Shown here: positions 4,092-44,863 of the stretch, one piece after another | How positions within the stretch are numbered: the first letter of the stretch is position 1 | Layout: each line of letters starts with the position of its first letter | Source: Escherichia coli | Lineage (GTDB): Bacteria; Pseudomonadota; Gammaproteobacteria; Enterobacterales; Enterobacteriaceae | Length of the DNA: 64,000 nt | Assembly: GCF_041248615.1 (NCBI RefSeq) | Contig: NZ_CP158426.1 | Strand: one strand, 5' to 3' | Made by a program: the position numbers and the translations under genes | The notes under the pieces: generated by a model | Database searches by the model: none | Told to the model about the DNA's origin: nothing | Seen by the model: the letters and a program-made list of their open reading frames with translations, nothing else

Positions 4092-5486
4092 ATGCCATTT
4101 AAAAAACTCTCCCGACGCACCTTCCTGACGGCAAGCTCGGCGCTTGCCTTCCTCCATACCCCTTTCGCCCGTGCACTTCCTGCCCGGCAAAGCGTTAACA
4201 TTAACGACTACAACCCTCACGACTGGATCGCCTCATTTAAACAAGCCTTCAGCGAAGGGCAAACGGTCGTCGTGCCCGCCGGATTGGTTTGCGACAATAT
4301 CAACACCGGCATCTTCATTCCTGCAGGTAAAACGTTACACATCCTTGGAAGCCTGCGCGGCAACGGCAGAGGGCGATTTGTCTTACAGGACGGCAGCAAG
4401 GTGACAGGGGGGGAGGGCGGCAGTATACATAACATCACCCTGGATGTGCGTGGTTCTGACTGCACCATCAAAGGGCTGGTGATGAGCGGCTTTGGCCCGG
4501 TGACGCAGATCTATATCGGCGGCAAAAACAAACGGGTCATGCGCAACCTGACCATCGATAACCTCACCGTTAGCCACGCTAACTACGCCATCTTACGCCA
4601 GGGATTTCATAACCAGATTATCGGTGCCAATATCACCAATTGTAAGTTCAGCGACTTACAGGGCGACGCCATTGAATGGAACGTGGCAATTAACGACAGT
4701 GATATTTTGATCTCCGACCATGTGATCGAGCGCATCAACTGTACTAACGGCAAAATCAACTGGGGCATTGGCATCGGCCTTGCGGGAAGTACCTACGATA
4801 ATAATTATCCGGAAAACCAGGCAGTGAAAAACTTTGTCGTGGCGAATATCACGGGATCAGATTGTCGGCAACTGATCCATGTTGAAAATGGTAAACATTT
4901 TGTTATCCGTAATATCAAAGCTCGTAATATCACGCCGGATTTCAGTAAGAAAGCAGGTATTGATAACGCCACAGTTGCTATTTATGGTTGTGACAACTTT
5001 GTGATTGATAATATTGAAATGATTAATAGTGCCGGGATGTTAATTGGCTATGGGGTAATTAAAGGCAAATATCTCTCGATACCGCAGAATTTCCGAGTGA
5101 ATGATATTCAACTGGATAATACTCATCTTGCTTATAAATTGCGCGGCATCCAAATCTCCGCCGGGAATGCTGTCTCCTTTGTGGCGCTGACTAACATTGA
5201 GATGAAGCGTGCGTCGCTTGAGCTACACAATAAACCGCAACACCTTTTTATGCGAAATATCAATGTGATGCAGGAATCCTCTGTTGGACCCGCATTGAGC
5301 ATGAACTTCGACATGCGCAAAGACGTACGCGGTGTCTTTATGGCGAAAAAAGAAACACTGCTGTCTCTTGCAAATGTTCATGCGGTGAATGAAAAAGGAC
5401 AAATCTCCGTCGATATCGACAGGATTAATCACCATATTGTTAATGTGGAGAAGATTAACTTTAGATTGCCAGAACGGAGGGAGTAG
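4092..5486 (+). CDS. wcaM: Colanic acid biosynthesis protein WcaM (signal peptide, beta-helix-like)
   Basis: 464-aa ORF with N-terminal Tat-like signal ([14 protein letters not shown]); last gene of the wca cluster before galF. Confidence 0.85.
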
Positions 5487-6926: not shown

Positions 6927-8012
6927 GTGAAGATACTTGTTACTGGTGGCGCAGGATTTATTGGTTCTGCTGTTGTTCGTCACATAATAAATAATACGCA
7001 AGATAGTGTTGTTAATGTCGATAAATTAACATACGCCGGAAACCTGGAATCACTCGCTGAAATTTCTGATTCTGAACGTTATTCATTTGAGCATGCAGAT
7101 ATCTGCGATGCCGAAGCGATGGCTCGTATTTTCGCACAGCACCAGCCAGACGCGGTGATGCACCTGGCAGCAGAGAGCCACGTTGACCGCTCAATAACTG
7201 GCCCTGCGGCATTTATTGAAACCAATATTGTGGGTACTTATGTTCTTTTAGAAGCGGCGCGCAATTATTGGTCTGGTCTGGATGATGAAAAGAAAAAAAA
7301 CTTCCGTTTTCATCATATTTCTACTGATGAGGTGTATGGTGACTTACCCCATCCGGATGAAGTAAATAGCAATGAAACGTTGCCGCTATTTACGGAAACG
7401 ACAGCATACGCGCCAAGTAGTCCATATTCTGCTTCTAAAGCTTCCAGCGATCATTTGGTTCGCGCATGGAAACGTACTTATGGTTTACCGACCATTGTGA
7501 CTAATTGCTCGAACAACTATGGTCCTTATCATTTCCCGGAAAAGCTTATTCCACTGGTTATTCTTAATGCACTGGAAGGTAAGGCATTACCTATTTATGG
7601 CAAAGGAGATCAGATCCGCGACTGGTTGTATGTAGAGGATCATGCTCGAGCGTTATATACCGTCGTAACCGAAGGTAAAGCGGGCGAAACTTATAACATT
7701 GGTGGACACAACGAAAAGAAAAACATCGACGTAGTGTTCACTATTTGTGATTTGTTGGATGAGATAGTCCCGAAAGAGAAATCTTATCGTGAGCAAATTA
7801 CCTATGTTGCTGATCGCCCAGGGCATGATCGCCGTTATGCAATTGATGCCGATAAAATTAGCCGCGAATTGGGCTGGAAACCGCAAGAAACGTTTGAGAG
7901 CGGTATTCGTAAAACGGTGGAATGGTATCTGGCTAATACAAATTGGGTTGAGAATGTGAAAAGCGGTGCTTATCAGTCGTGGATTGAACAGAACTATGAG
8001 GGCCGCCATTAA
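6927..8012 (+). CDS. rmlB: dTDP-glucose 4,6-dehydratase RmlB
   Basis: N-terminus [16 protein letters not shown] (GTG start), SDR-extended family; ORF track start 6858 likely too far upstream. Confidence 0.9.
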
Positions 8013-41850: not shown

Positions 41851-42909
41851 GTGCGTGCCGATAAGTCATTAAGCCCGTTTGAAATCCGGGTATACCGCCA
41901 TTACCGCATTGTGCATGGTACTCGGGTCGCGCTGGCATTCCTGCTCACTTTTCTCATTATCCGCCTGTTTACTATCCCGGAAAGCACCTGGCCGCTGGTC
42001 ACCATGGTGGTGATTATGGGGCCAATCTCGTTCTGGGGTAACGTTGTCCCTCGTGCCTTCGAACGTATTGGCGGTACGGTGTTGGGGTCGATTTTAGGTC
42101 TTATCGCTCTGCAACTGGAGTTAATCTCGTTACCGCTGATGTTAGTCTGGTGCGCGGCGGCGATGTTTCTTTGCGGTTGGCTGGCGCTGGGCAAGAAACC
42201 GTATCAAGGTTTATTGATTGGGGTGACGCTGGCAATTGTTGTTGGTTCCCCGACAGGTGAAATTGATACGGCGTTATGGCGAAGCGGCGATGTGATCCTC
42301 GGCTCTTTACTGGCAATGTTGTTTACCGGTATCTGGCCACAACGAGCGTTCATCCACTGGCGCATTCAACTGGCAAAAAGTCTGACCGAGTATAATCGGG
42401 TCTATCAATCTGCATTCTCACCGAACTTACTCGAACGCCCACGTCTGGAAAGCCATCTACAAAAACTCCTGACCGATGCCGTGAAAATGCGTGGGCTGAT
42501 TGCGCCCGCCAGCAAAGAAACCCGTATTCCAAAATCGATATATGAAGGTATCCAGACCATTAATCGCAATCTGGTTTGTATGCTGGAGTTGCAAATCAAT
42601 GCATACTGGGCCACGCGCCCCAGCCATTTCGTATTATTGAACGCGCAAAAACTGCGTGATACCCAGCATATGATGCAGCAAATACTGCTGAGCCTTGTTC
42701 ATGCGCTATACGAAGGTAATCCGCAGCCGGTTTTTGCCAATACGGAAAAATTGAACGATGCTGTGGAAGAGCTGCGTCAGTTGCTGAATAACCACCATGA
42801 CCTGAAGGTTGTGGAAACACCAATCTATGGTTATGTGTGGCTGAACATGGAAACGGCACATCAGCTTGAGTTGCTATCGAATCTGATTTGCCGGGCCTTG
42901 CGCAAATAA
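41851..42909 (+). CDS. yeeA: Inner membrane protein YeeA (FUSC/ArAE-like efflux family)
   Basis: 352-aa ORF, hydrophobic N-terminal half, conserved position between sbmC and yeeX. Confidence 0.8.
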   Translation: MRADKSLSPFEIRVYRHYRIVHGTRVALAFLLTFLIIRLFTIPESTWPLVTMVVIMGPISFWGNVVPRAFERIGGTVLGSILGLIALQLELISLPLMLVWCAAAMFLCGWLALGKKPYQGLLIGVTLAIVVGSPTGEIDTALWRSGDVILGSLLAMLFTGIWPQRAFIHWRIQLAKSLTEYNRVYQSAFSPNLLERPRLESHLQKLLTDAVKMRGLIAPASKETRIPKSIYEGIQTINRNLVCMLELQINAYWATRPSHFVLLNAQKLRDTQHMMQQILLSLVHALYEGNPQPVFANTEKLNDAVEELRQLLNNHHDLKVVETPIYGYVWLNMETAHQLELLSNLICRALRK

Positions 42910-43080
42910 TTCCTGAACTTCAGAATCATCTTGCTGCTGCTTCGATTCAGCAAGGATAAAGGGTATGATAGTGAAAAGGGATAAAAGCATTGTCATCTGC
43001 GGCAGCTATGAGTAATGTTGGCCCTAACGAATAGCGGTTGCTTAAACGAATCCGACTCTCACATTATCAGGGGTATAAAA

Positions 43081-43410
43081 ATGGAAACTACCAAGCCTTC
43101 ATTCCAGGACGTACTGGAATTTGTTCGTCTGTTCCGTCGTAAGAACAAACTGCAACGTGAAATTCAGGACGTTGAGAAAAAGATCCGTGACAACCAGAAG
43201 CGCGTCCTGCTGCTGGACAACCTGAGCGATTACATCAAGCCGGGGATGAGCGTTGAAGCAATCCAGGGCATCATCGCCAGCATGAAAGGTGACTATGAAG
43301 ATCGCGTTGACGATTACATCATCAAAAATGCCGAGCTCTCCAAAGAACGCCGCGATATCTCCAAAAAGCTGAAAGCTATGGGCGAAATGAAAAACGGCGA
43401 AGCGAAGTAA
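43081..43410 (+). CDS. yeeX: UPF0265 protein YeeX (DUF496)
   Basis: [30 protein letters not shown] recognised; 109 aa from internal Met of the 131-aa ORF. Confidence 0.88.
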
Positions 43411-43424
43411 TTCCTGTTTTATTC

Positions 43425-43451
43425 AATGAGGGTTGCCTGGCAACCCTCATT
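43425..43451 (+). terminator. Perfect palindrome between convergent yeeX and pduV (probable yeeX terminator)
   Basis: aatgagggttgcc t ggcaaccctcatt, 13-bp perfect arms. Confidence 0.55.
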
Positions 43452-43510
43452 GCTCATTGTTTCTTTTCTGTGTATCACCGTCATCATTCCCATCTGATAA
43501 CCTATTGAAA

Positions 43511-43954
43511 TTAGCGACAGCCTTCTTCTGTATGCAGCAAGGCAAAAAGTTCTGCAACTCCATTGTTATTAACCGCACTGGTTACTAACACATTGTGCGC
43601 TCCAGCTTCCCGTAACCAACTTTTCACCAAAGATATTTGTTCCATGCTGGCTAAATCTGCTTTGGTGACTACTCCAATGACCGGGCGATTCATTGACGAG
43701 GTAAAGCCTGGCGAAAAAGGGGACCACGGTGCGTCCGCATTAAGCACCAGGGCGATAATGTCCGCTTCGCAGGCGCTGACCAACAGAGCACTGTAGAGGC
43801 TGCGGTTTTCGAGGTATTCGCCTGGTGTATCAATGGTGGTCGGGGACCAGACGATTGCCTGCGTTTTCTGATAATGAATATTTTCGCCACGCAGACATTG
43901 CGTGAGTGACGTTTTTCCGCACTGGCTGGGGCCGATGAGCATCATACGTTGCAT
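43511..43954 (-). CDS. pduV: Propanediol utilisation GTPase PduV (EutP/PduV family)
   Basis: 147-aa ORF with P-loop [10 protein letters not shown]; last gene of pdu operon here. Confidence 0.85.
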
Positions 43955-43958
43955 AACG

Positions 43959-44309
43959 TCAGGTCCGCGTAATGGGGCAGGCGGTAAAGCGCATCATTTC
44001 ACCCAGCGTACGGGTAACCTGGCTAAGTGCATATTCAATGGCAGAAACATCACCAGTCAGCACTACGGCACCGGTAAAACGATCAAGAAAACCGATCTCT
44101 ACAGCGCCTGATTTTGTGGCGATATCACATGCGATGATAGATGCTTCGCTGGGGGTAATTGTCAGAATGCCAATAGCAGAAACGGTGTCTGGTAAACCCA
44201 ATTTCTTAAACAGATCCTTCCCTGGATTGGCGATGACATGTGCCAGCGTGACCTGCTTACCAGGGACATATTCCTGAATCATCCGTTCAGTTGTGTGCTG
44301 AGTTGTCAT
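43959..44309 (-). CDS. pduU: Microcompartment shell protein PduU (circularly permuted BMC domain)
   Basis: [29 protein letters not shown]; 116 aa from internal Met, removing the overlap with pduT. Confidence 0.85.
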
Positions 44310-44863
44310 TATCCCTCCACCATCTGACGCCACATGGCTTCATGTGGACGGGCAATCACCGACCGATAGACCAACAAACCTTTTTCTCCCGCACGCTCGC
44401 TGGCGACAGAGACCGCGTTATTAACATCTGAAATATCGCCAGCAACCACCATGTAGCATTTACCGCCAATGCCAAAAGCCATATGCACGCGAACAAGAAT
44501 GACATTCGCAGCTTTGACAGCACAATCGGCAGCGTCAATGCAGGCGGCGACACTCCAGGTTTCGACTACGCCGACAGCCCGGTGCTGTTCAACTTGGTTC
44601 AGTCCGCTGGTTGCAGAAAGGAGGCTGGGATGAATATTCGGCAGGACAAGACTGTCGACCAGCATTTCACCAGCAAGGGAAGCACCGCTGTTGATGGCCT
44701 GTTGCACCGCGCCCACATCGCCACCGAGCATCAGCAGAAATTTTCCGGGGCATAGCGTTTTGCTGACCAGTAACTCAACGTTGGCGCTTTTCAGCATGGC
44801 GTCGCCGGTTTCCATCCCTTTCGCGATACTGCTAAGTTCTAAAATACCTACCGCTTTCGACAT
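44309..44863 (-). CDS. pduT: Microcompartment shell protein PduT (tandem BMC, Fe-S)
   Basis: 184-aa ORF with two BMC-like repeats ([29 protein letters not shown]). Confidence 0.88.

Follow-up and report, generated by a model that had tools for sequence, protein, structure and literature searches.

The perfect palindrome that separates the convergent genes tmaR (formerly yeeX) and pduV in a 64,000-nt stretch of Escherichia coli DNA (the whole of which is referred to here as the window) is most probably the 3'-terminal stem-loop of the tmaR mRNA, with the polymerase being released further downstream with the assistance of Rho and the transcript being trimmed back to the protective hairpin. A rough probability of 0.85 is assigned to this reading. 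The evidence comes from the fold and covariation of the stem, from the strand on which its wobble pairs are tolerated, and from published maps of RNA 3' ends in E. coli K-12. The features on which the argument depends are as follows.

43081–43410, + strand: tmaR coding sequence, an open reading frame of 109 codons plus stop
43424–43452, + strand: probable 3'-terminal stem-loop of the tmaR mRNA (fold, covariation, wobble bias and K-12 3'-end maps)
43453–43457, + strand: expected steady-state 3' end of the tmaR mRNA (measured in K-12, presumed for the window strain)
43453–43650, + strand: probable Rho loading and termination zone, untranslated, C-rich and G-poor (presumed for the window strain)
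43511–43954, − strand: pduV, encoding a EutP/PduV-family GTPase, a 147-codon open reading frame convergent with tmaR
43693/43694, no strand: K-12-type synteny breakpoint (alignment and annotation)
43809/43810, no strand: NN5-type synteny breakpoint (alignment and annotation)

The tmaR product is annotated as a DUF496 protein in E. coli genomes and as 'PTS system regulator TmaR' (b2007) in MG1655. The pduV gene is the last of the E. coli pdu operon, with pduU adjoining it in the RefSeq annotation of identical or near-identical E. coli genomes, and its 3' end is antisense to the putative Rho zone. Between yeeA and tmaR there is also a conserved small open reading frame of 16 codons at 42965–43015 (+ strand), annotated in MG1655 as yoeJ (b4818).

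Structure of the palindrome

The inverted repeat, CAATGAGGGTTGCC-T-GGCAACCCTCATTG, consists of two 14-nt arms (43424–43437 and 43439–43452) that are 100% complementary to each other and are separated by a 1-nt spacer. An earlier note on this DNA had described aatgagggttgcc-t-ggcaaccctcatt at 43425–43451 as a perfect palindrome with 13-bp arms; the sequence and its perfection are borne out, while the arms prove to be longer by one pair on each side. The placement given there, between the stop codon of tmaR (43408–43410, + strand) and that of pduV (43511, − strand), is likewise correct, with 14 nt between the tmaR stop and the start of the palindrome and 59 nt between its end and the convergent pduV stop. 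By our own arithmetic, a perfect palindrome with 14-bp arms and a short loop is expected by chance about 0.003 times per 64 kb. A search of the window that allowed up to 3 mismatches yielded no other copy of the palindrome, and none of 100 shuffles produced a match.

When transcribed from either strand, the palindrome is predicted to fold into 13 pairs closed by a 3-nt loop, with folding energies of −21.1 kcal/mol for the + strand (z = −4.4) and −22.2 kcal/mol for the − strand (z = −4.0); in neither case was any of 200 shuffles as stable. On the tmaR sense strand this is a GC-rich stem-loop near a stop codon, with 7 G-C pairs among 13–14, which is the stem expected of an intrinsic terminator. 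A search of 42900–44000 against Rfam at a permissive threshold returned chance matches only (mir-367 at E = 4.4 and two snoRNA models). A sigma-54-type promoter was also considered in CTGGCAACCCTCATTGCT and was rejected: on inspection GG and GC are spaced by 11 instead of 10, the TGGCA motif would take its T from the polymorphic loop base of the palindrome (C in K-12), and the promoter would drive transcription antisense to pduV.

Conservation in E. coli and the edge of the pdu block

Of 5426 complete E. coli genomes, 5417 contain the 60-bp segment that carries the palindrome (43411–43470), at a median of one place per genome and at an identity of at least 90% in all but one of the 5417. It should be noted that these counts were obtained with a 'distant'-mode search; megablast, which requires a 28-base word, recovered only 274 genomes. 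Matches to a longer query of 961 bp (43000–43960) were likewise found in 5417 of the 5426 genomes, and most of them broke off at query base 694 (window position 43693). An intact pduV that spans both breakpoints was found in 643 of the 5426 genomes, leaving approximately 88% without an intact pduV.

These data bear directly on the proposal of the earlier note that the palindrome, by virtue of its location, might be a recombination or junction landmark. Such a landmark would be the place of insertion or excision of the pdu block or of the element replacing it. The position between tmaR and pduV in this window fits such a role, as does an insertion of ISEc12 in the left arm in strain TUM9812. 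The note had suggested aligning the yeeX 3' flank from pdu-positive and pdu-negative genomes and had named a palindrome conserved in both, with the breakpoint elsewhere, as the outcome that would contradict it, and this is the outcome obtained. In a three-way alignment, both arms are unchanged in pdu-negative K-12, where the centre base alone differs (T to C), and the palindrome of pdu-negative NN5 is fully identical, including the loop T. Synteny in these pdu-negative strains continues for 241 or 357 bp beyond the palindrome and breaks inside pduV, at approximately 43693/4 and 43809/10, such that the palindrome does not coincide with the boundary between conserved and variable sequence that would define an island junction. 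The adjacency of tmaR to pduX or pduV in Salmonella, Citrobacter, Kosakonia and E. albertii, together with the lack of a second copy of the palindrome in the window or the genome and the disruption of the 60-bp segment in only 3 genomes, leaves a role as a landmark scarcely credible. The variable block begins inside pduV, and the palindrome is not the edge of the pdu block. Because the segment is present in 5417 genomes and the breakpoints lie inside pduV, the hairpin, the 100-bp spacer and the tail of pduV are best regarded as core-like sequence.

The two breakpoints differ in what lies beyond them. In K-12 W3110 the order is tmaR, the palindrome, a 183-bp remnant of pduV (43511–43693) and then CP4-44 genes, and the annotated end of CP4-44 in MG1655 (2078748) corresponds to window position 43694. 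The 183-bp remnant is retained in most pdu-negative E. coli, and the K-12-type junction, in which a CP4-44-like element abuts it, is found in 4158 of the 5426 genomes. The K-12 open reading frame yoeF is a chimera across this junction, its 3' part being derived from the pduV remnant. In NN5, a 297-bp remnant of pduV (to approximately 43809) is followed by a hypothetical gene and then by cobU-cobS-cobT; this junction, which is a deletion of pdu-cbi, was found in 202 genomes.

The ISEc12 insertion in E. coli TUM9812 is an observation in its own right. This IS21-family element (istA/istB) lies inside the left arm of the palindrome and splits the hairpin, and it is flanked by a 5-bp target duplication, AGGGT, that is equivalent to window positions of approximately 43429–43433 (TUM9812 locus 4430–4445 and 7010–7025). 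That the palindrome might be a hot spot for ISEc12 was considered and rejected, as this is a single case among just 3 disruptions of the 60-bp segment in 5417 genomes.

Published 3' ends of the K-12 transcript

Positions in MG1655 were transferred to the window by the relation window = 43410 + (2079032 − MG1655 position). Term-seq data place the dominant, 'primary' 3' end of yeeX at 2078989 on the − strand of MG1655 (Adams et al., 2021, PMC7815308, Supplementary file 1), 1 nt past the stem, and the flanking sequence listed for it ends ...GGCAACCCTCATTGC. Three yeeX 3'-end entries are given in that source, matching three growth conditions. The TRS data, obtained by an independent method, give a 'Primary' tmaR terminus at 2078985/6, 4–5 nt past the stem; the source depicts this same hairpin with an energy of −21 kcal/mol and reports a 48-nt 3' UTR (PMC10687069). 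One table of the latter source also lists a minor terminus at 2078892, which corresponds to window position 43550, approximately 97 nt downstream of the hairpin; this terminus is consistent with some read-through before Rho-dependent release. The TERMITe supplement contains no tmaR entry, and a search of the literature on yeeX termination and on yoeF/pduV found nothing specific to the tmaR hairpin.

Selection on the stem

The stem was examined for covariation in 16 sequences from Escherichia, Citrobacter and Salmonella that share a recognisable common stem base. RNAalifold identified 12 pairs, 6 of which have changed on both sides with pairing kept. Of the stem cells in this alignment, 98.4% are paired, compared with 34–58% when the 3' partner is slid by 1–3 columns. 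Cells with a double change number 22, compared with 6.9 ± 2.7 in shuffles, and the observed covariation score was reached by none of 500 shuffles, although these statistics derive from 16 related sequences and are inflated by shared ancestry. The alignment contains 14 cells that are not Watson-Crick pairs. These are G·U in 11 cases when read as + strand RNA and in 1 case when read as − strand RNA, such that 13 of the 14 are broken on the − strand and 3 of the 14 on the + strand. Within E. coli itself, a polymorphism in strain 258E (GGCAACC to GGTAACC) creates a G·U pair. The maintenance of pairing by compensatory change and the asymmetry of the wobble pairs therefore argue for selection on the tmaR-sense RNA. 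To judge from these alignments, selection probably acts neither on the duplex DNA nor on the pdu-sense RNA.

The same data weigh on the idea that the palindrome functions as DNA, whether as the operator of a dimeric protein, as a cruciform, or as a member of a family of repeated extragenic palindromes. A perfect dyad with 14-bp arms is the expected form of a binding site for a dimer. However, the stem sequence shifts between genera with pairing kept, and 11 G·U pairs, mispaired both in duplex DNA and on the opposite strand, are tolerated. Moreover, the site is flanked by the 3' ends of a convergent gene pair, a scan of 42500–44500 detected no promoter-like site, and the element is present once per genome and matches no Rfam family. 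A DNA-level function is thus considered very improbable. The palindrome does resemble REP/BIME elements in being an imperfectly GC-rich intergenic palindrome at the 3' end of a gene, but it differs from them in that there is one copy per genome, with no similarity to other loci, where such elements occur in many copies.

Tail of the hairpin and mode of release

The sequence that follows the stem, CTCATTGTTTCTTTT, is the weak part of the structure if it is viewed as a terminator. T occupies just 4 of its initial 8 positions and 11 of the 17 that follow the stem. Scored in the manner of TransTermHP, the tail reaches −2.48, whereas the canonical terminators at the orthologous position reach −5.6 in Enterobacter and −6.6 in Leclercia. 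The tail of the window strain is slightly more T-rich than that of K-12 (TTGTTTCTTTTCT and TTGATTCTTATCT, respectively). Downstream of this tail, a Rho region has been mapped in K-12 at 2078833 on the − strand of MG1655, with a score of 14.2 and p = 4.5e-50 (Adams et al., PMC7815308, Supplementary file 2). Its peak corresponds to window position 43609, on the tmaR strand and 156 nt downstream. The upstream and downstream counts at this region are 248 and 25 in untreated cells and 290 and 414 with bicyclomycin (PMC7815308). When bicyclomycin is present, the downstream counts exceed the upstream counts, and part of the signal could reflect RNA initiated further downstream, within the CP4-44 remnant, instead of read-through of tmaR. 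The ratio of C to G over the 250 nt after the stem is 1.3–1.9, compared with 0.91 for the whole window, and K-12 is alike in this respect. It should be noted that all of the transcript data were obtained in pdu-negative K-12 and that the downstream sequence of the window strain differs beyond 43693; the same 3' end and mechanism would be expected in the pdu-positive window strain.

The earlier note had regarded the palindrome as most simply the yeeX terminator. This stands insofar as the tmaR 3' end mapped in K-12 falls at the hairpin, whose pairing has been preserved between genera through compensatory substitutions. A textbook, self-sufficient terminator of the intrinsic type, for which the hairpin and the U-rich stretch would suffice and in which Rho would play no real part, is a different matter. 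Several observations are in accord with such a terminator: the GC-rich stem of 13–14 bp directly past the stop codon, a simple permissive consensus scan that accepts the site as terminator-like, the 11 T among the 17 bases after the stem, textbook terminators at the orthologous position in Enterobacter, Lelliottia and Leclercia, and a sharp 3' end in two datasets. Against these stand the low share of T in the first 8 bases of the tail and its poor score next to those of the canonical orthologues, a 3' end that lies 1–5 nt past the stem rather than 7–9 nt into a U-tract, the strong bicyclomycin-sensitive region on the same strand 156 nt downstream, and the minor 3' end approximately 97 nt downstream. 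Taken together, these render a purely intrinsic terminator unlikely, if still a credible candidate. Instead, the weak U-tract, the 3' end at 1–5 nt past the stem, and the downstream Rho region favour Rho-assisted termination.

In the mechanism proposed for the tmaR transcript, transcription of the + strand would cross the palindrome and the nascent RNA would fold into a hairpin of 13–14 bp with a stability of approximately −21 kcal/mol. Some or most polymerases would then pass the hairpin and its weak, interrupted U-rich tail, and Rho would release them within the next 100–200 nt, antisense to the 3' end of pduV. Exonucleases acting in the 3'-to-5' direction would trim the RNA back until they are blocked, as is predicted, by the hairpin, leaving a stable mRNA that ends 1–5 nt past the stem. 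The fact that this end falls short of the position expected in a U-tract (7–9 nt) could reflect such trimming. Some direct, hairpin-dependent termination is also possible, and we infer both the exonuclease trimming and the division of release between Rho-dependent and intrinsic routes.

This arrangement has a precedent. Dar and Sorek (2018) describe Rho-dependent transcripts with a precise 3' end past a stable stem-loop to which no U-rich tail is attached; rut sites follow closely, and the structure guards the RNA against PNPase and RNase II. Measured against that description, the tmaR transcript has a stable stem-loop directly upstream of a precise 3' end in K-12, a hairpin without a good U-tract, and C-rich, G-poor sequence with a bicyclomycin-sensitive region downstream of the stem. 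It differs from the class in that its tail is moderately T-rich and some intrinsic release may take place. By analogy, the tmaR hairpin looks like one more Rho-assisted, hairpin-protected 3' end of a kind already known genome-wide, its block to exonucleases being a prediction.

Neighbours of tmaR in other Enterobacteriaceae

In nearly all of approximately 80 species of Enterobacteriaceae, the tmaR stop is followed within 0–19 nt by a stable hairpin, of about −14 to −30 kcal/mol, whose sequence varies between genera. The gene that faces tmaR varies as well: it is pduV in E. albertii and other Escherichia species and pduX in Salmonella, Citrobacter, Kosakonia and Pseudocitrobacter, and in Kluyvera cobU follows directly. 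The convergent neighbour of 286–300 aa in Salmonella, Citrobacter, Kosakonia and Pseudocitrobacter was identified as a probable PduX on the basis of its sequence; the hairpin occupies the interval between the tmaR stop and the tblastn match to PduX, which in most of these loci starts 32–55 nt further on. The occurrence of this adjacency of tmaR to pduX or pduV in several genera indicates that it is old. The end of the pdu operon that adjoins tmaR is thus pduV in E. coli and E. albertii and pduX in the four other genera.

The type of terminator is not uniform across these species. The tmaR terminators of Enterobacter, Lelliottia and Leclercia (AAAAAGGCTCTCTGG-TGAC-AGAGAGCCTTTTTTT) resemble the E. 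coli hairpin in lying 0–19 nt after the stop and in a stability of −17 to −30 kcal/mol. They differ in their make-up, in which an A-tract and a stem are followed by 6–11 consecutive T. In a survey of the first 75 nt after the tmaR stop (loci L004–L083), a run of at least 6 T was absent from 42 of the 44 loci in which the neighbour of tmaR is a convergent pduX or pduV or is cobU, these loci representing the Escherichia, Citrobacter, Salmonella and Kluyvera versions. In contrast, a textbook terminator with A-tract, stem and U-tract was present in 27 of the 35 species in which tmaR adjoins a MATE transporter gene or some other neighbour. This suggests that the type of terminator changed together with the neighbouring locus, in a pattern that is confounded by phylogeny.

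A hairpin that is shared by two convergent genes might serve both. Bidirectional terminators have reportedly been found between convergent genes, and the E. coli palindrome resembles them as a single, perfectly symmetric hairpin in such a position. It might accordingly also terminate or stabilise the convergent transcript of the pdu operon, made from the − strand, 59 nt past the pduV stop. The perfection of the palindrome in E. coli, the equally good fold of its − strand RNA and its location between convergent genes would fit this, as would the presence of the Citrobacter and Salmonella hairpin 32–55 nt upstream of the convergent region that matches pduX in most loci. Yet the − strand tail is A-rich (GAATAAAACAGG, with a score of −1.77) and the upstream flank, GTTTTATT, contains no A-tract that could supply a U-tract on the opposite strand; the hallmarks of a bidirectional terminator, an A-tract before the stem and a U-tract behind it together with a stem that stays paired on either strand, are not seen. 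The palindrome further departs from such terminators in that the wobble pairs, nearly all of which are broken on the − strand, indicate selection on the tmaR strand only. Moreover, the hairpin is fully kept where pduV is not intact, as in approximately 88% of E. coli genomes, and in species in which cobU or another gene follows tmaR. A role for pdu is therefore judged quite unlikely.

A broader form of this idea holds that the shared hairpin protects the 3' ends of both tmaR and pdu, that together with Rho it insulates tmaR from antisense transcription into pdu, and that the convergent pdu/cob locus beside tmaR drove a lineage-specific exchange of the canonical, Enterobacter-type U-tract terminator for a U-less, Rho-assisted hairpin. 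The proposal of such a terminator switch is prompted by the absence of the T run in 42 of the 44 loci adjacent to pdu or cob and its presence in 27 of the 35 others, and it is unlikely as a whole. The reading preferred here thus remains that of a stem-loop at the 3' end of the tmaR mRNA, with Rho-assisted release downstream.

Implications

The 3' end of tmaR is already contained in two published genome-wide tables, and the element is an ordinary one that is effectively documented. The main value of the present result is negative, in that the palindrome is unfit as a marker of the boundary of the pdu island. The tmaR message ends at a hairpin that is conserved by compensatory change, the importance of which is small beyond annotation. 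As regards the pdu locus, the pdu-negative state of most E. coli results from deletions that end inside pduV and that have left behind the tail of this gene together with the tmaR hairpin.
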